Positions 20,126 to 31,306 of a DNA stretch of 64,000 nucleotides are shown here, one piece after another. Position numbers and translations under genes: made by a program. Origin of the DNA: a phage. Every line of letters starts with the position of its first letter. Positions within the stretch are counted from its first letter, which is position 1. The DNA lies in sequence record PZ445439.1; one strand, written 5' to 3'. Below the pieces are notes generated by a model. It was not told the origin of the DNA and made no database searches. It saw nothing but the letters and a program-made list of their open reading frames with translations.

Positions 20126-20133
20126 TATAAATA
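20126..20133 (+). promoter_or_regulatory. late promoter TATAAATA for gene 34
   Basis: exact TATAAATA about 30 nt upstream of gene 34 ATG. Confidence 0.55.
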
Positions 20134-20163: not shown

Positions 20164-23100
20164 ATGGCCGACATCAAACGTAAGTTCAGAGCCGAAGACG
20201 GTCTGGACGCCGGTGGCGACAAGATTGTTAACGTAGCATTAGCCGACCGTACAGTAGGTACTGATGGCGTAAACGTTGACTTCCTGGTACAAGAAAACAC
20301 CGTTCAAGTATATGATTCTACGCGTGGATATAACAAAGGATTTGTTGTTCTTTATGACAACCGTTTATATCAAGCAATAAATGATATCGTGTCTCCTTCC
20401 GGGGCATTTAACCTTTTACAATGGCGTGCAGTTCGTACCGATGCACAATGGATAACTGTCGCTTCTGGGACTTATCAACTTTCTTCAGGTGAATCGATTT
20501 CGGTTAACACTGGTGCCGGCAATGATATGGTTTTCACGTTGCCAAATACGCCGGTTGATGGTGATACTGTTGTTTTGGCTGATATTGGTGGAAGAACCGG
20601 GACAGTTAAAGTACAGATTAACGCGTCTGTGCAGAGTATTTTAAACTTTAGAGGTGAACAAGTTCGTACAGTTTTAATGACGCGCCCACGTTCACAACTA
20701 TTGTTTGTGTTTAGTAATCGTTTGTGGCAGATGTATATTACCGATTATGGTAAAGAATCAATCACTGTTACACCTGCGACACCATATCAAGCACAAGCAA
20801 ATGATTTTATCGTTCGTCGTTTTACTAGTGCAGCACCAATCAACATTACACTTCCACGTAATGCTAACAATGGTGATATAATCAGCCTAGTCGATTTAGA
20901 TAGATTAAACCCACTATATCATACAATTGTTAAAACATTTGATGATACAACGTCTATTGGTGAAGTCGGGACTCATATTGCCGAAGGCAGAAATGACTCT
21001 GACGCGTTTTTTGTTTTTGATGCTGCAAATAGTTTATGGCGTATATGGGAAGGCGACCAGAAATCGCGTCTTCGTATTATCCGTGCGGATTCAAATATTC
21101 GTCCAAATGAAGAAGTTCTTATTTTTGGCACAAATAACGCTACAGCCGGAACTATTAATCTTACGCTGCCTTCCGGAATTTTGAGTGGTGACACTGTTAA
21201 AATTTCAATGAACTACATGCGTAAAGGCCAAACAGTAAAAATTAAAGCTGCCGAAGGTGATACAATTGCTTCTTCTGTTGCATTGCTTCAGTTCCCTAAA
21301 CGTTCTGAATATCCACCTGATGCTCAATGGGTCTCTGTTACTGAACTAGAATTCAATGGCACTACTTCATATGTTCCTGTATTAAAATTAGCATATATCG
21401 AAGACACCGTTGCTGGTACACGTTATTGGGTTGTTCAACAAAACGTCCCAACTGTAGAACGTGTTGATGCTGGAACTGATGCTACACGAGCTCGTTTAGG
21501 TGTTATTGCTCTTGCTACTCAAGCGCAAGCAAATGTTGATTTAGAGAATACTCCAGCTAAAGAAGTTGCTATTACTCCGGAAACATTGGCAAATCGTACA
21601 GCAACTGAAGCTCGACGTGGTATCGCTAAAATTGCCACAACAGCACAAGTTAACCAGAATTCCACAGCATCATTTGTGGACGATACTATTGTTACGCCTA
21701 AAAAACTAAATGAGCGTACAGCAACTGAAACTCGTCGCGGTCTTGCTGAAATTGCTACTCAGGCCGAAACCGATGCCGGTCTTGATGACACAACGATTAT
21801 TACACCTAAGAAATTGCAGGCACGTCAGGGCTCTGAAACACTATCTGGTATAGTTAAATATGTATCAACTACTTCTGCTACTCCTGCTGAAACTCGTGGA
21901 ACCGCAGGCACTAACGTTTATAATAAAACCGTAAATAATTTAACTATTTCTCCTAAAGCCCTTGACCAATATAAAGCAACTTATGCTCAACAAGGTGCGG
22001 TAATTTTAGCTGTTGATAGTGAAGTAATTGCTGGTCAATCACAAGCAGGTTATTCTCATGCTGTAGTAACTCCTGAAACACTACATAAGAAAACTTCTAC
22101 TGATGGACGTATTGGTTTAATTGAAATTGCTACGCAAGCAGAAACTAATGCTGGGACTGATTATACACGCGCAGTAACACCTAAGACGTTAAATGATAGG
22201 AAAGCTACGGAAGGATTATCCGGCATAGCCGAACTTGCTACGCAAGTTGAATTTGATACTGGAACTGATGATACTCGTATCTCGACTCCACTGAAAATTA
22301 AAACTCATTTTGATTCTTCTGACCGTACCAGTGTTAATTCTGATTCCGGACTTATTGAAGAAGGAACCTTGTGGAACCATTATACTCTTGATATTTCTAA
22401 AGCAAATGAAACACAACGCGGTACACTTCGCGTAGCGACACAGGCAGAATCTAATGCAGGAACTTTAGATGATGTTCTTATTACTCCTAAAAAGCTTTTA
22501 GGGACTAAGTCCACTGAAACGTCTGAAGGCGTAATTAAGGTTGCTACTCAGGCTGAAACTGTAACAGGAACTTCTGCTAATACTGCTGTATCTCCTAAGA
22601 ATTTAAAATGGATTGTCCAGAAAGAACCAACATGGGCTGCTACTACAGCAATTCGCGGATTCGTTAAAACTTCATCCGGTTCTATTACATTCGTTGGTAA
22701 TGATACAGTCGGTTCTACACAACCTTTAGAATCATATGAGAAAAATAGCTATGCAGTATCACCATATGAATTAAACCGTGTACTTGCTAACTATTTGCCA
22801 TTGAAAGCTAAAGCCGTAGATAGTAATTTATTAGATGGCCTAGATTCATCTCAGTTCATTCGTAGGGACATTGCACAGACGGTTAATGGTTCACTATCCT
22901 TAACCCAACAAACGAATCTGAGTGCCCCTCTTGTATCAACTAGTACTGCTACGTTTGGTGGTTCAGTTTCGGCAAATAGTACATTAACTATTTCTAACTC
23001 TGGAACAGCTACTCGTCTGATTTTTGAAAAAGGACCTCAAACTGGAACTAACCCAGCACAGACGATGACTATCAGAGTTTGGGGAAATGAATTTGGCGGT

Positions 23101-24039
23101 GGTTCAGATACAACACGTTCTACTGTATTTGAAGTTGGCGATGAAACATCTAATCACTTTTATTCTCAACGTAATAAAGCCGGGAATATAACGTTTAGTA
23201 TCAATGGTACTGTGATGCCAATAAATGTTAACGCTTCAGGCACGTTAAATGCGAATGGCGTTGCAACATTTGGTCGTTCAGTTACAGCCAATGGCGAATT
23301 CATTAGCAAGTCTGCAAATGCTTTCAGAGCAATTAGTGGTGATTACGGATTCTTTATTCGCAATGATGCTACTAACACCTATTTTATGCTTACTGCATCA
23401 GGTGACCAGACTGGCGGATTTAATGGATTACGTCCTTTAGCTATTAACAATGCATCTGGTCAAGTAACGATTGGTGAAAGCTTAATCATTGCTAAAGGTG
23501 CTACTATAAATTCAGGTGGTTTAACAGTTAACTCAAGAATTCGTTCTCAGGGTTCTAAAACTGCTGATTTATACACTCGTGCTCCTACTGCTGATACAGT
23601 CGGATTCTGGTCAATTGACGTCAATGATTCAGCTACATATAACCAATTCCCGGGTTATTTTAAAATGGTTGAAAAAACTAATGAAGTGACTGGACTTCCA
23701 TACTTAGAGCGCGGTGAAGAAGTTAAATCTCCTGGTACGCTGACTCAGTTTGGTAACACACTTGATTCGCTTTACCAAGATTGGATTACTTATCCAACGA
23801 CGCCAGAAGCGCGTACCACTCGCTGGACACGTACATGGCAGAAAACCAAAAACTCTTGGTCAAGTTTTGTTCAGGTATTTGATGGAGGTAACCCTCCTCA
23901 GCCGTCTGATATCGGTGCTTTACCATCTGATAATGCTACAATGGGGAATCTTACTATTCGTGATTTCTTACGAATTGGTAATGTTCGCATTGTTCCTGAC
24001 CCAGTGAATAAAACTGTTAAATTTGAATGGGTTGAATAA
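20164..24039 (+). CDS. 34: gp34 long tail fibre proximal subunit
   Basis: 1291 aa, repetitive fibre sequence, first gene of 34-35-36-37-38 operon. Confidence 0.95.
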   Translation: MADIKRKFRAEDGLDAGGDKIVNVALADRTVGTDGVNVDFLVQENTVQVYDSTRGYNKGFVVLYDNRLYQAINDIVSPSGAFNLLQWRAVRTDAQWITVASGTYQLSSGESISVNTGAGNDMVFTLPNTPVDGDTVVLADIGGRTGTVKVQINASVQSILNFRGEQVRTVLMTRPRSQLLFVFSNRLWQMYITDYGKESITVTPATPYQAQANDFIVRRFTSAAPINITLPRNANNGDIISLVDLDRLNPLYHTIVKTFDDTTSIGEVGTHIAEGRNDSDAFFVFDAANSLWRIWEGDQKSRLRIIRADSNIRPNEEVLIFGTNNATAGTINLTLPSGILSGDTVKISMNYMRKGQTVKIKAAEGDTIASSVALLQFPKRSEYPPDAQWVSVTELEFNGTTSYVPVLKLAYIEDTVAGTRYWVVQQNVPTVERVDAGTDATRARLGVIALATQAQANVDLENTPAKEVAITPETLANRTATEARRGIAKIATTAQVNQNSTASFVDDTIVTPKKLNERTATETRRGLAEIATQAETDAGLDDTTIITPKKLQARQGSETLSGIVKYVSTTSATPAETRGTAGTNVYNKTVNNLTISPKALDQYKATYAQQGAVILAVDSEVIAGQSQAGYSHAVVTPETLHKKTSTDGRIGLIEIATQAETNAGTDYTRAVTPKTLNDRKATEGLSGIAELATQVEFDTGTDDTRISTPLKIKTHFDSSDRTSVNSDSGLIEEGTLWNHYTLDISKANETQRGTLRVATQAESNAGTLDDVLITPKKLLGTKSTETSEGVIKVATQAETVTGTSANTAVSPKNLKWIVQKEPTWAATTAIRGFVKTSSGSITFVGNDTVGSTQPLESYEKNSYAVSPYELNRVLANYLPLKAKAVDSNLLDGLDSSQFIRRDIAQTVNGSLSLTQQTNLSAPLVSTSTATFGGSVSANSTLTISNSGTATRLIFEKGPQTGTNPAQTMTIRVWGNEFGGGSDTTRSTVFEVGDETSNHFYSQRNKAGNITFSINGTVMPINVNASGTLNANGVATFGRSVTANGEFISKSANAFRAISGDYGFFIRNDATNTYFMLTASGDQTGGFNGLRPLAINNASGQVTIGESLIIAKGATINSGGLTVNSRIRSQGSKTADLYTRAPTADTVGFWSIDVNDSATYNQFPGYFKMVEKTNEVTGLPYLERGEEVKSPGTLTQFGNTLDSLYQDWITYPTTPEARTTRWTRTWQKTKNSWSSFVQVFDGGNPPQPSDIGALPSDNATMGNLTIRDFLRIGNVRIVPDPVNKTVKFEWVE

Positions 24040-24047
24040 GAGGTATT

Positions 24048-25163
24048 ATGGAAAAATTTATGGCAGAGTTTGGACAAGGATATGTCCAAACGCCATTTTT
24101 ATCGGAAAGTAATTCAGTAAGATATAAAATAAGTATAGCGGGTTCTTGCCCGCTTTCTACCTCAGGACCATATGTTAAATTTCAGGATAATCCTGTAGGA
24201 AGTCAAACATTTAGCGCAGGTCTTCATTTAAGAGTTTTTGACCCTTCAACAGGAGCATTGGTTGATAGTAAGTCATATGCTTTTTCGACTTCAAATGATA
24301 CTACATCAGCGGCTTTTGTTAGTTTCATGAATTCTTTTTCAAGCAATAGACTTGTTGCTATATTAACTAGCGGAAAGGTTAATTTTCCTCCTGAAGTAGT
24401 ATCTTGGCTAAGAGCTGCAGGAACGTCTGCTTTTCCATCTGATTCTATATTGTCAAGATTCGACGTATCATATGCTGCTTTTTATACTTCTTCTAAAAGA
24501 GCTATCGCACTAGAACATGTTAAACTGAGTAATAGAAAAAGCACAGATGATTATCAAACTATTTTAGATGTTGTATTTGACAGTTTAGAAGATGTTGGAG
24601 CTACCGGGTTTCCAAGAAGAACGTATGAAAGCGTTGAGCAATTTATGTCAGCGGTTGGTGGAACTAATAACGAAATTGCGAGATTACCAACTTCATCCGC
24701 GATAAGTAAACTATCTGACTACAATTTAATTCCTGGCGATGTTCTTTATCTTAAAGCACAACTATACGCTGATGCTGATTTACTTGCTCTTGGAACTACG
24801 AATATATCCATTCGTTTTTATAATGCATCTAATGGATATATTTCCTCGACACAAGCTGAGTTTACCGGAAAAGCTGGGTCTTGGGAATTAAAAGAAGATT
24901 ATGTAGTTGTTCCAGAAAACGCCGTGGGATTTACGATATATGCGCAAAGAACTGCAAAAGCAGGTCAAGGTGGTATGAGAAATTTAAGCTTTTCTGAAGT
25001 GTCAAGAAATGGAGGTATTTCGAAACCTGCTGAGTTTGGCGTCAACGGCATTCGAGTTAATTATGTCTGTGAATCCGCTTCACCTCCGGATATAATGGTA
25101 CTTCCTACGCAATCATCGTCTAAAACTGGTAAAGTATTTGGGCAAGAATTTAGAGAAGTTTAA
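24048..25163 (+). CDS. 35: gp35 long tail fibre hinge protein
   Basis: 371 aa, position after gene 34. Confidence 0.9.
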   Translation: MEKFMAEFGQGYVQTPFLSESNSVRYKISIAGSCPLSTSGPYVKFQDNPVGSQTFSAGLHLRVFDPSTGALVDSKSYAFSTSNDTTSAAFVSFMNSFSSNRLVAILTSGKVNFPPEVVSWLRAAGTSAFPSDSILSRFDVSYAAFYTSSKRAIALEHVKLSNRKSTDDYQTILDVVFDSLEDVGATGFPRRTYESVEQFMSAVGGTNNEIARLPTSSAISKLSDYNLIPGDVLYLKAQLYADADLLALGTTNISIRFYNASNGYISSTQAEFTGKAGSWELKEDYVVVPENAVGFTIYAQRTAKAGQGGMRNLSFSEVSRNGGISKPAEFGVNGIRVNYVCESASPPDIMVLPTQSSSKTGKVFGQEFREV

Positions 25164-25194: not shown

Positions 25195-25202
25195 TATAAA
25201 TA
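25195..25202 (+). promoter_or_regulatory. late promoter TATAAATA for gene 36
   Basis: exact TATAAATA about 24 nt upstream of gene 36 ATG. Confidence 0.55.
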
Positions 25203-25225: not shown

Positions 25226-25888
25226 ATGGCTGATTTAAAAGTAGGTTCAACAACTGGAGGCTCTGTCATTTGGCATCAAGGAAATTTTCCATTGAATCCA
25301 GCCGGTGACGATGTACTCTATAAATCATTTAAAATATATTCAGAATACAATAAACCACAAGCAGCTGATAACGATTTCGTTTCTAAAGCTAATGGTGGTA
25401 CTTACGCCGCGACTGTTCGATTTAATGGAGGCGTACATGTTCCTACTATAGGTAGTAGTCAACAGTGCGGCGTTTATCCAGGCAACGGTGATGCAGCTAC
25501 TTTTGCTATGGCAAATATTGACATCGTTTCGTGGAATGGTATTGGTTTTAAATCATCACAAGGTTCAGCAGACCGAACTGTTGTAATTAATGCACGTAAT
25601 GGTGATATTAGTACAAAAGGCGTCGTGACAGCAGTAGGTCAAATAAGAAGTAATGCAGTTTCTCCTGTAGCAGCGAATGACCTAACTCGCAAAGATTATG
25701 TTGATGGAGCAATAAATACTGTTACAGCAAATGCGAACTCTAGAGTGTTACGATCTGGCGACACTATGACGGGTAACTTAACCGCACCAAACTTTTTTTC
25801 GCAGAATCCTGCATCTCAACCTTCACACGTTCCACGATTTGACCAAATCGTAATTAAGGATTCTGTTCAAGATTTCGGCTATTATTAA
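25226..25888 (+). CDS. 36: gp36 long tail fibre distal connector
   Basis: 220 aa, position and size as T4 gp36. Confidence 0.9.
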
Positions 25889-25896
25889 GAGGACTT

Positions 25897-28800
25897 ATGG
25901 CTACTTTAAAACAAATACAATTTAAAAGAAGCAAAACCGCAGGTGCACGTCCTGCTGCTTCAGTATTAGCCGAAGGTGAATTGGCTATAAACTTAAAAGA
26001 TAGAACACTTTTTACTAAAGATGATTCAGGAAATATCATCGACTTAAGCATTTCTGCTGGCGGTAGTATCAGTGGAAATATCACTCAAACTGGTGATTAT
26101 TTACAAAATGGAACATATAATCTTAATGGAAACCAGTTTGTTTATGCAGGAAAATATATTGAATTTTTACCTAAAACTGCTGGTAATGGTGCTTGGGCAA
26201 ATCAACACCTAAATAAAGCTCCTATTTTTACGGATTTAAGTTCAACTACTTCCGTTTCAGAATACCATCCGCTAATTAAGCAGCGTTATAAAGATGGGAC
26301 TTTTTCAGCGGGTACATTGGTTGCTGAAGGAAGTTTTAAGATTCATTACATCAATGAATCTGGGGATTCGAAATATTGGACTTTTAATCGTAATGGTAAT
26401 TTCCAAGTTGACACAGGCGATTTATTTGTCAGCAAAGGTAATATTTCCGCTTCAGGCAATATTAATTCAGCTACTGGAATAGTTTCTGCTCCACAGATTA
26501 ATACAAAAACCATAGTTTTTGATACAAAGGCATTCGGACAATACGATTCGCAGTCATTAGTTCAATATGTTTATCCTGGAACAGGTGAAGAAAATGGTAT
26601 AAACTATCTTCGTAAAGTTCGAGCTAAATCAGGCGGAACTATTTACCATGAAATCGCTTCAGCTCAAACCGGTAAGAATGATGAAATTTCTTGGTGGACT
26701 GGAAATTCGCTTACTACTAAATTAATGGGTCTTCGTAATGATGGCGCAATGGTATTACGTCGTTCACTTGCTATTGGCACAATTACCGCTGATGAAAATA
26801 CTAACAACTATGGTTCTCCTACTCCAATGGGAGAAAGATATATTGCTTTGGGTGATGCTGCAACCGGTTTAAAATATATTAAGCAAGGTGTTTATGATTT
26901 AGTAGGTAATTGGAATTCTGTTGCTTCTATTACTCCTGACAGTTTCCGCAGTACTCGCAAAGGTTTATTTGGACGTTCAGAAGACCAAGGCGGAACCTGG
27001 ACAATGCCTGGAACGAACGCTGCTCTCTTGTCTGTTCAAACCCAGGCAGATGTGAATAACGCAGGCGATGGTCAAACCCACATTGGATATAATTCTGGCG
27101 GTAAATTTTCCCATTATTTCCGCGGTAAAGGCCAAACCAACATTAATACGCAGGAAGGTATGGAAATTAACCCTGGTATTTTGAAATTGGTAACTGGCTC
27201 TAATAACGTACAGTTTTATGCTAATGGAACAGTATCTTCAATACAAAGAATTAAATTTGATAACGGATTAGTTCTTACTGGTGCTAGACCTGATGGTATT
27301 CAACTTGATGCGCCTACATCAGTAGATGGCACTAAAACTATACTGTGGGCTGGTGGTACTCGCGCAGGTCAGAATAAAAGTTATGTATCTATTAAAGCGT
27401 GGGGTAATTCATTTAACGCATCTGGCGATCGCACTCGTGAATCAGTTTTTGAAGTAGCTGATGGACAAGGTTATTATTTTTATGCGCAACGTATAGCTCC
27501 TGCACCAGGTTCAACAACTGGAGTAATTCAATTTAGAGTTGCTGGAGCATTATTAACCGGTGGTGGTATTACATCATCTGGTTCTATTGTTACTGAATCA
27601 AGTTTAGTTGCAAATAATGGATTATCTGTAAATGGTCAGGCTAAATTTGGTGGAACGGCAGATGCATTAAGAATTTGGAACGCTGAATATGGTGCTATTT
27701 TCCGTCGTTCAGAAGCATCATTACATATTATCCCGACTCCTAAAGATGCTGGTGAAAGTGGTGGAATAAGTAATCTCCGCCCGCTTAGTATTAGCCTTAA
27801 TAATGGTATGGTGCAAATGCGTCATTCTGTTACGTTAGGCGATGATGGTGCAGGCGGTAATATGGTGACGGTTGATAATGATTCTAAAGTTATGGTAATG
27901 ACGACTAATAGCCGTATTAGTCCTAACTTCCGTATGCAAATTGGACAGTCGTCTTATATTGATGCTGAATGTACTAATGCTGTTAGACCGGCTGGCGCAG
28001 GTTCTTTTGCTTCGCAAAATAATGAAAATGTTCGTGCTCCGTTCTATATGAATATTGATAGAACTGATACTAGTACATATGTTCCAATTGTTAAACAGAG
28101 ATATGTGCAAAATAATAGTTGCTATTCTATCGGTACTTTAATTAATGGTGGTAATTTTAGAGTTCATTATCATGAAGGTGGTGATGGCGGTTCTACTGGC
28201 GCGATTATAAAGGATTTAGGTTGGGAATTTAATAAAAACGGTGATTTTTACTCTCCTGGTAAATTAGGTGCTGGTAATGTTCGTATTGGTACTGATGGTA
28301 ATATCACGGGGGGTTCATTACCTAACTTTGCTAACTTGAACTTGACATTAGATCGTAAAGTCAATACCCGAATGGTTTCTTATTCAGGTACTGGCGGTTG
28401 GTACAAATTAGCCACTGTAACAATGCCACAATCCACTTCAACCGTCACATTCGAAATTGCTGGTGGTAATGGCTATAATGTTAACACCCCACACCAATGC
28501 GTTACTTCGAAAATTGTTTTAAGAACTTCGAACAATAACCCGAAAGGTATTAATGCTGTTGTTTGGTCGATGGATACCGATCAGGGTATTAAGAATGTTG
28601 CAACGGTTAATACATCAGGCGATGTTTATGACATCTATGTAAACGTTGGTACTTATGCTCAGGCGTTAGCAGTTTCTTATTATGCTACTCCTAATGCTAC
28701 CATTAACCAGGTATTTGCAACGGACCAACCGGGTGCAACAGAAACTGCGGTTGAACTTCCTGAGACGGCTATTCAAGGACAGGTTGCTAGTGTTCTGAAT

Positions 28801-29805
28801 AACTTGGCTCTTACCCCGAACGGTGTAAAACGTTATGAAGCCGATTCTGAAATAGCTATTAATAGCCAAACTGGCATTCGTATTAGAAGCAACAGCGATA
28901 AAACTGGTTCTGTTGCTACAATGCTACGAAATGATGGTGGTAGTTTTTATATTCTGTTTACAGATAAAAATGCCACCGATGGCGCAGCAACTGTTAATGG
29001 TGATTGGAATAGTAAACGTCCTTTCGCAATTAACTTAACAACCGGCGAAGTGCTAATGAATAACGGCATAGCTGTTCGCAGCGCTGCTTTATTCTATAAT
29101 AGCATAAACGTCAAAGATAATGGTTCTATTAACTTTGATAAGTCCGGAGCTAACCCAAGAAATATGAGAATATTTCATGCTGGCGATGGCACTCGTGGTA
29201 ATCGCATTGAAATTGCCGATGAAACTAACTATATTGCTTACTTCCAAAAATTACCTGGTGGTCAAAACCAAGTTTCATTCAATAGCGCTACACTTTCTGG
29301 ATTAACACAGTGTAATCAATTTGGTGTTAACACAACAAACGCACTTGGTGGAAACAGTATAACATTTGGTGATACCGATACTGGTATTAAGCAAAATGGC
29401 GATGGATTATTAGACATATATGCGAACAACGTACAAGTGTTCCGTTTCCAAAACGGTGATTTGTACTCATACAAAAATATAAATGCTCCAAACGTTTATA
29501 TTCGTTCTGATATTCGTTTAAAATCCAACTTTAAGCCTATCGAAAATGCACTTGATAAAGTTGAAAAACTTAACGGTGTCATTTACGATAAGGCTGAATA
29601 CATCGGTGGAGATGCAATTGAAACTGAAGCGGGTATTGTGGCTCAAACGTTACAAGACGTTTTACCAGAAGCTGTCCGTGAAACAGAAGACAGTAAGGGT
29701 AATAAAATACTCACTGTTTCTTCTCAAGCCCAGATTGCTCTTCTAGTTGAAGCTGTGAAAACACTTTCTGCTCGTGTAAAAGAACTCGAATCTAAACTTA
29801 TGTAA
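25897..29805 (+). CDS. 37: gp37 long tail fibre distal subunit, T2-type with C-terminal intramolecular chaperone domain
   Basis: 1302 aa; conserved N-terminus; C-terminal ..[17 protein letters not shown].. chaperone-like domain. Confidence 0.95.
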
Positions 29806-29835
29806 AAGAGGGCTTCGTCCCTCTAAGGATTTTTA

Positions 29836-30618
29836 ATGGCAATTGTAGGTGTTCCTGGCTGGATTGGTGAATCTGCCGTGAATGAAACTGGACAACGTTG
29901 GATGGATGCTGCAATGAGAGCAGTCCGTGTTTCAGTTCCTGGTTGGATGAGCTCAATGGCTGGGCAATCTAAAGAGATTCATTATAGCATTGGTGCTAGT
30001 AATTCTTATAATAAAGACACATTAATAAACTGGATAAAAGCCCAAGGAAGTACTCCTGTTGTTATTACTATTACAGGAAATATTGTTTCTCAATCTACTG
30101 GTGTTCCGTGTCTGGATTTCCCTAGTTCGTTGACCAATGCATATGTTACGTTGATCATTAACTCTGGCGTGACTGTCTATGGACGTGGGGGTAATGGTGG
30201 TAGTAACGCTGCCGGTGCTGCTGGTGGTAACGCAATTAATAATGGCATCGGTACACGCTTGCGTATTACGAATAATGGTGCAATCGCTGGCGGCGGCGGC
30301 GGCGGTGGCGGCGGTAACAGGGGTAAACTAATATTTGGTGGTGGCGGTGGTCGCCCATTCGGTGCTGGTGGGTCTTCCTCTCATATGAGTTCCGGTGCAA
30401 CTGCTGGTACTATTTCCGCTCCTGGTAAAGGATCTGTTGGTGAGGGGTCTCTTAGCGCATATACAGGCGGTGCGGGCGGTAACGTTGGTGCTGCTGGAGG
30501 AAGATGTAATACCCAAGGTAACGGTACAGAATATAACGGCGGCGCAGCTGGTAAAGCTGTTACCGGTAATGCTCCAACTTGGACTAAAGTTGGTACAATA
30601 TATGGTTCAAGAGTATAA
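29836..30618 (+). CDS. 38: gp38 tail-fibre tip adhesin, T2-type, with glycine-rich motifs
   Basis: 260 aa with conserved N-terminus and poly-Gly blocks (GGGGGGGGGN.., FGGGGGRPFGAGG). Confidence 0.85.
   Translation: MAIVGVPGWIGESAVNETGQRWMDAAMRAVRVSVPGWMSSMAGQSKEIHYSIGASNSYNKDTLINWIKAQGSTPVVITITGNIVSQSTGVPCLDFPSSLTNAYVTLIINSGVTVYGRGGNGGSNAAGAAGGNAINNGIGTRLRITNNGAIAGGGGGGGGGNRGKLIFGGGGGRPFGAGGSSSHMSSGATAGTISAPGKGSVGEGSLSAYTGGAGGNVGAAGGRCNTQGNGTEYNGGAAGKAVTGNAPTWTKVGTIYGSRV
30289..30316 (+). repeat. (GGC)n-type trinucleotide run encoding poly-Gly in gp38
   Basis: near-perfect GGC/GGT repeats seen directly. Confidence 0.6.
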
Positions 30619-30649
30619 TTTTGAATAAATATCCTTAAAAGGAGGGTCT

Positions 30650-31306
30650 ATGGCAGCACCTAGAATATCATTTTCGCCCTCTGATATTCTGTTTGGTGTT
30701 CTAGATCGCTTGTTCAAAGATAACGCTACCGGGAAAGTTCTTGCTTCCCGGGTAGCTGTCGTAATTCTTTTGTTTATAATGGCGATTGTTTGGTATAGGG
30801 GAGATAGTTTCTTTGAGTACTATAAGCAATCAAAGTATGAAACATACAGTGAAATTATTGAAAAGGAAAGAAATGCACGCTTTGAATCTGTCGCCCTGGA
30901 ACAACTCCAGATAGTTCATATATCATCTGAGGCAGACTTTAGTGCGGTGTATTCTTTCCGCCCTAAAAACTTAAACTATTTTGTCGATATTATAGCATAT
31001 GAAGGAAAATTACCTTCAACAATAAGTGAAAAATCACTTGGAGGATATCCTGTTGATAAAACTATGGATGAATATACAGTTCATTTAAATGGACGTCATT
31101 ATTATTCTGACTCAAAATTTGCTTTTTTACCAACTAAAAAGCCTACTCCCGAAATAAACTACATGTACAGTTGTCCATATTTTAATTTGGATAATATCTA
31201 TGCTGGAACGATAACCATGTACTGGTATAGAAATGATCATATAAGTAATGACCGCCTTGAATCAATATGTTCACAGGCGGCCAGAATATTAGGAAGGGCT
31301 AAATAA
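30650..31306 (+). CDS. t: holin T
   Basis: 218 aa, N-terminal TM segment, matches recalled T4 holin. Confidence 0.9.
   Translation: MAAPRISFSPSDILFGVLDRLFKDNATGKVLASRVAVVILLFIMAIVWYRGDSFFEYYKQSKYETYSEIIEKERNARFESVALEQLQIVHISSEADFSAVYSFRPKNLNYFVDIIAYEGKLPSTISEKSLGGYPVDKTMDEYTVHLNGRHYYSDSKFAFLPTKKPTPEINYMYSCPYFNLDNIYAGTITMYWYRNDHISNDRLESICSQAARILGRAK

Follow-up and report, generated by a model that had tools for sequence, protein, structure and literature searches.

A T-even long tail fibre tip combining an S74-tailed gp37 with a K3-allele, OmpA-type gp38 adhesin

Intramolecular chaperones of the endosialidase type (Pfam Peptidase_S74) form the very C-terminal end of trimeric fibre or spike proteins, and the catalytic role of the Ser/Lys dyad is established in endosialidase and in MYRF. 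C-terminal processing of gp37, the distal subunit of the long tail fibre, has been reported for T2 and S16. In S16, gp37 autocleaves its last 113 residues at DLNVS^SDRRIKK, exposing the docking surface for gp38 (PMC7917993). The S16 tip (6F45) is known to have a 3:1 gp37:gp38 geometry, and its structure shows three Trp of gp38 acting as prongs into gp37 pockets (PMC6851490). The glycine-rich half of gp38 has been described by a scheme of five glycine-rich motifs (GRMs) and four variable segments (HVSs; Trojet 2011, PMC3157838). The receptors are FadL/OmpF for T2, Tsx for T6, the OmpC of Salmonella for S16 and OmpA for K3, the classic phage of this last specificity.

The window analysed here is a stretch of 64,000 nucleotides of phage DNA (PZ445439.1), in which genes 34-35-36-37-38-t follow one another on the plus strand, with gene 38 lying between the S74-tailed gene 37 and the holin gene t. 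The same order is common to the window, T2, T6, JK38 and others. The open reading frames of gp37 and gp38 are located where a first-pass annotation had placed them, and both protein motifs that it quoted were found in the translations; the position from which it started, 29500, is gp37 aa 1202, two residues ahead of SDIRLK. Exact full-length look-up matches were obtained for both proteins, gp37 being QXV83448.1 and gp38 being QXV83449.1 of Escherichia phage PaulHMueller (Bas45), which thus shows no protein-level difference from the window in either. On these two exact protein matches, the window is most likely the PaulHMueller genome. With a probability of about 95%, the locus specifies the tip with which the long tail fibre of a T-even phage (Tequatrovirus) recognises its receptor, composed of an S74-tailed gp37 and an OmpA-binding gp38 of the K3 allele. 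The relevant features are as follows.

25897-29805, plus strand: gene 37, distal long tail fibre subunit (ORF, 1302 aa)
29302-29505, plus strand: gp37 aa 1136-1203, mature fibre distal tip before the predicted cleavage site (aligns to 6F45_A)
29506-29805, plus strand: gp37 aa 1204-1302 and stop codon, intramolecular chaperone (Peptidase_S74, Pfam PF13884)
29836-30618, plus strand: gene 38, gp38 adhesin (ORF, 260 aa)
30650-31306, plus strand: T holin, downstream of gp38 (Pfam Phage_holin_T, E=6e-118)

The Peptidase_S74 family (PF13884) matches gp37 at aa 1204-1261 (E=2.4e-15, 57 bits vs. a cut-off of 22), and the match spans all 58 model positions (1-58). The domain starts 99 residues before the gp37 stop codon, at the extreme C-terminus, and opens at nt 29506 with the Ser/Lys motif S1204-D-I-R-L-K1209, in which Ser and Lys are five residues apart. 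Of the T-even gp37 tails compared, all 11 keep Ser-x4-Lys, as does S16 gp37. SDIRLK of the window aligns with SDRRIK of S16 (6F45_A) and with ADLRAK of human MYRF (7DC3), of which the crystallised chain retains the Lys and has Ala at the Ser position; the MYRF ICA domain is only distantly related to the gp37 tail (E=0.0016). Among PDB sequences matched by the 113-aa tail at E<=10, S16 gp37 and MYRF were the only meaningful ones, with no endosialidase or T5 fibre chains; the other matches, to BH32 designs and dynein, were dismissed as noise. The C-terminal chaperone domain assigned to gp37 in the first-pass annotation is thus borne out by a full-length Pfam match and a conserved Ser-x4-Lys, with both S1204 and K1209 present on alignment.

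Autocleavage of the window gp37 is predicted between R1203 and S1204. By analogy with the S16 structure (PMC6851490), aa 1136-1203 would then form the docking surface for gp38. Compared with the window, the S16 gp37 tip is of a different subtype and has a longer insert ahead of the cleavage site. In the alignments, the subtype of the gp37 tip co-varies with that of the gp38 N-terminus, as also found by Trojet 2011 (PMC3157838). The window gp37 differs from the endosialidase-type and MYRF systems in that the surface freed by chaperone release would dock a separate adhesin. The identity of gp37 to T2 gp37 is 72% across aa 1-1065 and reaches 94.6% in aa 1136-1302, and a Pfam Gp34_trimer match lies at aa 509-632.

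The gp38 sequence matches two Pfam families, Gp38_N (PF21721; E=8.1e-18, 64.6 bits vs. a cut-off of 25) at aa 1-42 and GP38 (PF05268; E=2.8e-71, 240.3 bits vs. a cut-off of 25) at aa 47-260, the latter covering model positions 1-218. It also matches S16 gp38 (PDB 6F45_D, E=4.6e-49, aa 8-258), with the GRMs in register, and a GFP-gp38 fusion (PDB 9V85, E=3.8e-35). Residues W9, W22 and W37 align with Trp of S16, T2 and T6, so that the N-terminus is conserved as the first-pass annotation had proposed, in the Gp38_N match as well as in the three shared Trp. The gp38 regions are listed below; the boundaries of GRMs and HVSs are a reading of the alignment and are approximate.

29836-29961, plus strand: gp38 aa 1-42, attachment domain at the N-terminus, carrying W9, W22 and W37 (Gp38_N match)
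29974-30180, plus strand: gp38 aa 47-115, N-terminal part of the beta-helix domain (aligned to 6F45_D)
30181-30552, plus strand: gp38 aa 116-239, polyglycine domain (Gly blocks and 14-sequence alignment)
30316-30618, plus strand: gp38 aa 161-260 and stop codon, HVS2 to the C-terminus, OmpA-specificity cassette (identity to OmpA-type adhesins)
gp38 aa (approximate): GRM1 116-122, HVS1 123-151, GRM2 152-160, HVS2 161-167, GRM3 168-179
gp38 aa (approximate): HVS3 180-210, GRM4 211-222, HVS4 223-234, GRM5 235-239

Glycine accounts for 34% of residues 118-260 vs. 10% of residues 1-117 and is concentrated in the blocks GRGGNGG (116-122), G9 (152-160), GGGGG..GAGG (168-179), GGAGG..GG (211-222) and GG (235-236). 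An alignment of 14 sequences with MAFFT, including T2, T6 and other gp38 adhesins, showed that these blocks match column by column in the 13 other adhesins, with variation in the intervening segments. The five blocks and four variable segments follow the published scheme and bear out the poly-Gly motifs and variable segments noted in the first-pass annotation. An earlier tblastn search with the C-terminal half of gp38 covered aa 192-260 only, since the low-complexity filter masks Gly runs; it already indicated FL18 and was superseded by the MAFFT alignment of the fetched genes. The Pfam and 6F45_D matches, together with the Gly blocks aligned in 13 other adhesins, indicate that the gp37/gp38 observation is not due to chance. 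With S16, the window shares the S74 tail, the three-Trp attachment domain, the beta-helix and the polyglycine region, and the GRMs of the two gp38s are aligned, including the G8-G9 run. However, the identity of S16 gp38 to the window protein is 46% overall and 14-32% in HVS2-4. The gp38s of T2 and T6 have the same GRM/HVS plan as the window, but at HVS2 the window protein shows 0% identity to T2 and 29% to T6. The alignment to 6F45_D indirectly supports a three-layer polyglycine-II sandwich, and the receptor-binding loops would be located in the polyglycine domain (aa 116-239).

Other roles for the two proteins have to be weighed against these comparisons. The S74-like domain might be kept in the mature fibre without autocleavage, with gp38 binding beside or to the domain; sequence motifs by themselves are no proof of catalysis, and the cleavage of this gp37 is a prediction only. 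However, both dyad residues are in the canonical S-D-x-R-x-K spacing, the last 99 residues of gp37 are identical to those of T2 gp37 at 98 of 99 positions and processing has been reported for the latter, and in S16 it is the cleavage itself that exposes the docking surface for gp38. A retained domain is thus very unlikely. Several database records label homologues of gp38 'distal long tail fiber assembly catalyst', as would suit a T4-type assembly chaperone that stays outside the virion and leaves receptor binding to gp37 itself. Yet similarity to T4 gp38 was not found in the window gp38 by BLASTP (E=40), and T4 gp38 (183 aa) is without any Pfam match, whereas the window gp38 matches adhesin families. 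The distal ends of the gp37s differ as well: T4 gp37 has both Collar and Phage_fiber matches, whereas the window gp37 lacks them and has S74 instead, and the homology between the two (58% identity) is confined to aa 1-829. In addition, RefSeq remarks under T4 gene 38 that the gp38 of the T2 subfamily is unrelated and is the adhesin. As far as PMC6851490 relates the work of Riede 1987, gp38 of T2-type phages has been detected in purified virions or, by immuno-EM, at fibre tips. The T4-type identity was rejected on the BLASTP, Pfam and gp37 distal-end differences and is almost certainly wrong, which leaves gp38, with its Gly motifs, as the T2/T6-type adhesin that the first-pass annotation had taken it for.

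The specificity of this adhesin was examined segment by segment. Over its full length, gp38 is 86% identical (83% by tblastn) to that of JK38, a Tsx/Kdo phage (bioRxiv 10.64898/2026.04.02.716166), and residues 1-115 are 93-100% identical to JK38, in keeping with a T6-type adhesin that recognises Tsx. However, this likeness sits in the attachment domain (98-100% identity to T2/JK38, with T2 at 98%) and the beta-helix domain (93% to JK38/FriedrichMiescher at aa 47-115), which do not set specificity, whereas HVS2 and HVS3 are 43% and 58% identical to JK38. In T6 and JK38, the two Tsx-type adhesins compared, and also in FriedrichMiescher, HVS2 is longer by an insertion of 5 aa and HVS3 is shorter by a deletion of 4 aa; the window gp38 shows neither change, as it does not have the YYSPF insertion of Tsx-type adhesins and has the GEGS segment missing from them. 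From HVS2 to the C-terminus (aa 161-260), gp38 is identical at 99 of 100 positions to that of FL18, which depends on OmpA (Lutz 2025, PMC12032242), and 80-83% identical to those of the OmpA-type FL20, FL12 and EV240, compared with 74% for JK38, 64% for T6 (Tsx) and 51% for T2 (FadL). HVS2, HVS3, HVS4 and the C-terminus of FL18 gp38 are as in the window, with R173 of GRM3, replaced by C in FL18, as the sole difference. An exchange of gp38 from HVS2 onwards suffices to switch the receptor from Tsx to OmpA (bioRxiv 10.64898/2026.04.02.716166). Finally, PaulHMueller, with the identical gp38, targets OmpA, and its ompA dependency was fully complemented; the dependence was observed in plaque assays on the knockout, which show a requirement for OmpA rather than direct gp38-OmpA contact (PMC8594841). 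Tsx specificity, drawn from the overall identity to JK38, was dropped on the segment-wise identity and the published phenotype and is extremely improbable.

Consistent with the OmpA reading, K3 gp38 (P07876) is of equal length and has 259 of its 260 residues in common with the window gp38, including every GRM and HVS, and the two share one 90% cluster. The one substitution (A29 here vs. E29 in K3) falls within the attachment domain at the N-terminus and not near the receptor loops. Thus, the window gp38 is the K3 allele in specificity, directed at OmpA and not at FadL/OmpF or Tsx. That the variable segments determine receptor specificity, as the first-pass annotation had expected, agrees with the literature (PMC3157838; PMC12032242; bioRxiv 10.64898/2026.04.02.716166). 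Its label 'T2-type' holds for the architecture and for the subtype of the gp37 tip and intramolecular chaperone, but not for the specificity half, which is that of the K3/OmpA allele: T2/T6-type architecture goes together with K3/OmpA specificity here, since the HVS2-to-C-terminus part matches FL18 and the Tsx-type features are absent. The observation made in the first pass is confirmed overall and its interpretation supported, for a module that is already known and well studied; the adsorption experiment it proposed has in effect been published for PaulHMueller (PMC8594841).

In the proposed mechanism, gp37 would fold as a trimeric beta-helical fibre aided by its own C-terminal 99-residue chaperone. 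After trimerisation, the Ser1204/Lys1209 dyad would cut between R1203 and S1204, and the departure of the chaperone would expose the gp37 tip, on which a single gp38 copy would dock through W9, W22 and W37 of its attachment domain. The glycine-rich motifs in the C-terminal half of gp38 are expected to form a compact polyglycine-II core, from which the HVS loops would project to bind the surface loops of E. coli OmpA. Adsorption would then begin with reversible gp38-OmpA binding. In the phage of the window, cleavage, docking and the contacts between loops and OmpA presumably take place in this manner. As this module determines to which bacteria the phage can adsorb, it is a site for host-range prediction and for re-engineering in phage therapy. 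A reading of HVS2-HVS4 yields the right receptor, OmpA, whereas a receptor borrowed from the characterised relative that is nearest, among those compared, in overall gp38 identity (JK38, 86%, Tsx) would mislead.

Comparisons with FL18 also bear on the origin of gene 38. FL18 is a Mosigvirus with an S16-like gp37 tip, unlike the window. Its gp38 shares only the distal cassette with the window protein, since identity is 22-36% over aa 1-115 (22% in the attachment domain and 36% at aa 47-115) and 72% in HVS1. At the DNA level, nt 481-783 of gene 38 are 92-100% identical to FL18, and the HVS2-to-C-terminus cassette is ~90% identical in protein to that of TB34 (Krischvirus). We somewhat favour the view that gene 38 arose naturally as a chimera, with its junction in the Gly-motif region (~nt 300-480, GRM1 to GRM2). 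On this moderately probable reading, its front part (attachment domain, beta-helix and HVS1) is Tequatrovirus T2/JK38-like and is joined to a cassette running from HVS2 to the C-terminus. If the cassette moves as one unit between genera, by recombination at Gly-codon repeats, the gene would illustrate from nature an exchange between GRM1 and GRM5 that is absent among the 14 laboratory chimeras of Trojet et al. (PMC3157838). A true chimera would further point to HVS1 as not needed in the choice of OmpA. In the phage collection searched, the best DNA match for 29400-30700 is 236Ecol005PP (93.9%) and the best gp38 protein match is 310Ecol104PP (96.9%), with no record reaching 99% or more.

Neither Rfam at its gathering thresholds nor a tRNA scan gave any hit across the entire window. 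The candidate transcription and translation signals around genes 36 to 38 are as follows.

25195-25202, plus strand: TATAAATA, consensus of T4-type late promoters, upstream of gene 36
29807-29824, plus strand: GC-rich hairpin AGAGGG-CTTCGT-CCCTCT in the intercistronic gap of genes 37 and 38 (terminator-like scan)
29825-29829, plus strand: AAGGA, resembling a Shine-Dalgarno sequence, 6 nt before the ATG of gp38 (read from the sequence)

The TATAAATA site at 25195-25202 is likely the start of a 36-37-38 late transcript. Its position alone supports this function, the count of the motif in the window being at chance level (8 vs. 8.8 expected). A second site lies at 20126, upstream of gene 34, and the motif scan found none directly upstream of gene 38. 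The hairpin between genes 37 and 38 has an RNA folding energy of -8.8 kcal/mol, and each of the 10 relatives examined also has a hairpin here, but of a different sequence; most of these relatives have a C(UUCG)G tetraloop and a folding energy of -13.4 kcal/mol.

The + strand at 20.1-31.3 kb carries a canonical T-even long-tail-fibre operon:

20164-24039, + strand, gene 34 (1291 aa)
24048-25163, + strand, gene 35
25226-25888, + strand, gene 36 (Pfam Phage_T4_gp36)
25897-29805, + strand, gene 37 (1302 aa)
29807-29824, + strand, GC-rich hairpin after the stop codon of gene 37 and ahead of the gene 38 ribosome-binding site, followed by AAGGA and ATG
29836-30618, + strand, gene 38 (260 aa)
30650-31306, + strand, holin t (Pfam T holin, E=6e-118)

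Around the operon, asiA-, arn- and motA-like ORFs on the minus strand match their T2, T4 and T6 counterparts in size and position, and DNA searches placed the window with E. coli and Shigella phages of the Tequatrovirus type. GC skew is negative in the minus-strand blocks flanking the operon and positive within it, matching the direction of transcription. Searches of the whole 64-kb window found no tRNA genes (ARAGORN) and no Rfam family at gathering score. In the hinge protein gp35 (24048-25163), aa 58-123 match Pfam ILEI (31.4 bits vs. a gathering score of 27, E=2.7e-7), an interleukin-like EMT inducer or FAM3-type domain and a surprising call for a phage fibre hinge.

The first-pass annotation had begun the module at window position 29500, which is residue 1202 of gp37, the distal fibre subunit, and its proposed C-terminal chaperone domain is borne out. 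The motif SDIRLK begins at residue 1204 (nt 29506), 99 residues ahead of the stop codon, and aa 1204-1261 match the full length of the Pfam model Peptidase_S74 ('chaperone of endosialidase', E=2.4e-15). This tail is identical to that of T2 at 98 of its 99 residues. Alignment of the tail to S16 gp37 (PDB 6F45) sets SDIRLK opposite SDRRIK, and a weaker alignment to human MYRF (chain 7DC3) sets it opposite ADLRAK. An alignment of 11 T-even gp37 tails, S16 and MYRF shows both the Ser and the Lys conserved throughout the phage sequences. The stretch NVYIR^SDIRLKS is aligned to the site DLNVS^SDRRIKK, at which the last 113 residues of S16 gp37 are autocleaved to expose the gp38 docking surface (PMC7917993); processing of T2 gp37 is credited by a citing paper to Drexler 1986.

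Identity to T4 gp37 is 58% over aa 1-829, and the two proteins are unrelated beyond; the T4 protein ends in Collar and Phage_fiber domains without S74, whereas the window gp37 has S74 and neither of the others. Identity to T2 gp37 is only 72% over aa 1-1065 and 94.6% at the tip; BLAST aligned nothing in aa 1066-1135. Given the stop of T4 homology and the uneven T2 identity, the distal shaft (28384-29301, aa ~830-1135) is a variable module flanked by conserved ends. No other protein falls in the 90% cluster of gp37. A Gp34_trimer domain (PF21446) matches the mid-shaft at aa 509-632 (27421-27792, E=1.1e-10), and the equivalent position of T4 gp37 (aa 491-627) gives a weaker match, below the Pfam cut-off (25.5 bits vs. 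27). These matches point to a module common to the two half-fibres, proximal (gp34) and distal (gp37).

Gp38 matches PF05268 GP38 (E=2.8e-71), PF21721 Gp38_N (E=8e-18), the GFP-gp38 fusion of PDB 9V85 and, over aa 8-258, the solved S16 gp38 (6F45_D, E=4.6e-49). The counterparts of W9, W22 and W37 in S16 gp38 are the three tryptophans by which that protein is held in pockets of the gp37 trimer. Glycine makes up 34% of aa 118-260 and 10% of aa 1-117. The alignment called for in the first-pass annotation, with T2, T6 and other adhesins (14 sequences), showed five conserved glycine blocks (116-122, 152-160, 168-179, 211-222 and 235-239) separated by variable segments, as that annotation had described. 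It had also preferred an adhesin to a T4-type assembly chaperone, rightly: BLASTP detected no similarity between the window gp38 and T4 gp38 (E=40), and together with the different end of T4 gp37 this rules out the chaperone identity. By each feature testable from sequence, the module belongs to the gp38 adhesin and S74 intramolecular-chaperone families, its fold and biochemistry being assigned by homology.

The established account of T2-type fibres is the best supported for this module, with cleavage, stoichiometry and loop-receptor contact taken from homologues. Gp37 would trimerise with the aid of its own C-terminal chaperone, and the Ser1204/Lys1209 dyad would then cleave it between R1203 and S1204. 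A single gp38 would cap the trimer, held there by the attachment domain with its three Trp; the glycine motifs would form a polyglycine-II core, and the variable segments distal loops touching the receptor. Trojet 2011 (PMC3157838) described gp38 N-terminal subtypes and gp37 C-terminal subtypes as pairing like lock and key. In our alignments the gp37 tip and the gp38 N-terminus are both common to the window, T2, JK38 and the BASEL phages, and FL18 combines an S16-like tip with a different N-terminus, in agreement with such pairing.

The receptor was read from gp38 genes of phages whose receptor is determined or reported (OmpA for FL18, FL20, FL12 and EV240; Tsx for JK38 and T6; FadL for T2; OmpC for S16), with the closest uncharacterised relatives added; the genes were fetched before the exact-sequence look-up. 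Over residues 1-115 identity reaches 93-100% with JK38 and FriedrichMiescher and only 22-36% with FL18. From the second hypervariable segment (HVS2) to the C-terminus the order is reversed.

Identity of gp38 aa 161-260 to adhesins of phages with the receptor shown
FL18, OmpA: 99/100
FL20, FL12 and EV240, OmpA: 80-83%
JK38, Tsx: 74%
T6, Tsx: 64%
T2, FadL: 51%

A five-residue insertion in HVS2 (YYSPF), present in T6 and JK38 (the only two Tsx phages compared) and in FriedrichMiescher, is absent from the window gp38, which does have the four HVS3 residues GEGS missing from the same three; at both places it follows the OmpA pattern. Lutz et al. (PMC12032242) reported that adhesins alike outside the N-terminus share a receptor and placed FL12, FL18 and FL20 in a 'type 2' OmpA group. 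The earlier proposal that the variable segments set the receptor gains backing from a 2026 preprint (bioRxiv 10.64898/2026.04.02.716166), in which replacing gp38 from HVS2 onwards sufficed for a switch from Tsx to OmpA. From segment-wise identity we infer OmpA as the receptor.

The look-up identified gp38 as QXV83449.1 and gp37 as QXV83448.1 of Escherichia phage PaulHMueller (170,053 bp). Because both proteins match exactly, the window was assigned to this phage, whose genome is outside the searched collection; the best gp38 match within it is 310Ecol104PP (96.9%). PaulHMueller, numbered Bas45 in the BASEL collection, targets OmpA, its ompA dependency being fully complemented (PMC8594841). The 90% cluster of gp38 also holds the adhesin of K3 (UniProt P07876), a classic OmpA phage (Trojet 2011), which differs only by A29E within the attachment domain. 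The OmpA pattern and the published swap and grouping therefore agree with the phenotype of a phage carrying the identical protein. Tsx would have been the choice from JK38, the nearest characterised relative compared (86% overall gp38 identity), and is wrong, given the OmpA pattern from HVS2 onwards and the ompA dependence of PaulHMueller; overall identity would mislead here, whereas the comparison from HVS2 to the C-terminus yields OmpA. The label 'T2-type' thus holds for the gp37 tip, its chaperone and the gp38 attachment domain, but the receptor-binding half is K3-type (OmpA, 'type 2' of Lutz et al.).

Genes 34 and 36 are each preceded on the + strand by the T4-type late-promoter consensus TATAAATA (at 20126 and 25195 respectively), positions that are only suggestive, the motif count in the window being at chance level. 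None lies directly before gene 38, which suggests co-transcription of 36-37-38. Each of the ten relatives examined has a hairpin at the g37/g38 junction, including FL18, EV240 and T6, whose sequence there is different. Stable UUCG hairpins are known in T4 intercistronic regions. Most relatives have a C(UUCG)G tetraloop (-13.4 kcal/mol); in the window a G-to-T change opens the loop-closing pair, leaving a weaker hairpin (-8.8 kcal/mol). It might adjust how much gp38 is made compared with gp37 (the gp37:gp38 ratio in the fibre is 3:1) or make the mRNA more stable.

Gene 38 is a mosaic: nucleotides 1-300 share 85-100% identity with JK38 and FriedrichMiescher (Tequatrovirus), and nucleotides 481-783 share 92-100% with FL18 (Mosigvirus). 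FL18 shares HVS2-4 with the window gp38 and differs in HVS1 (72%). Krischvirus TB34 has the middle and distal regions in common with it (97% identity in the beta-helix and HVS1), but not the first 46 residues (61%). Gene 38 is thus probably (at a rough probability of 0.6) a chimera with a junction inside the region of the glycine-rich motifs GRM1-GRM2, its distal cassette occurring in Tequatrovirus, Mosigvirus FL18 and Krischvirus TB34. The pattern fits the long-standing idea of modular shuffling; protein, phage and receptor are already published, and this descriptive observation is the only mildly new point. The deposited start of the FL18 'adhesin protein' CDS (PP400780.1, 997-1710, 237 aa) appears too late, and the in-frame upstream MAVEGPWVGWSARVQTGDPWMGGAAQRLRM restores the Trp-bearing attachment domain.
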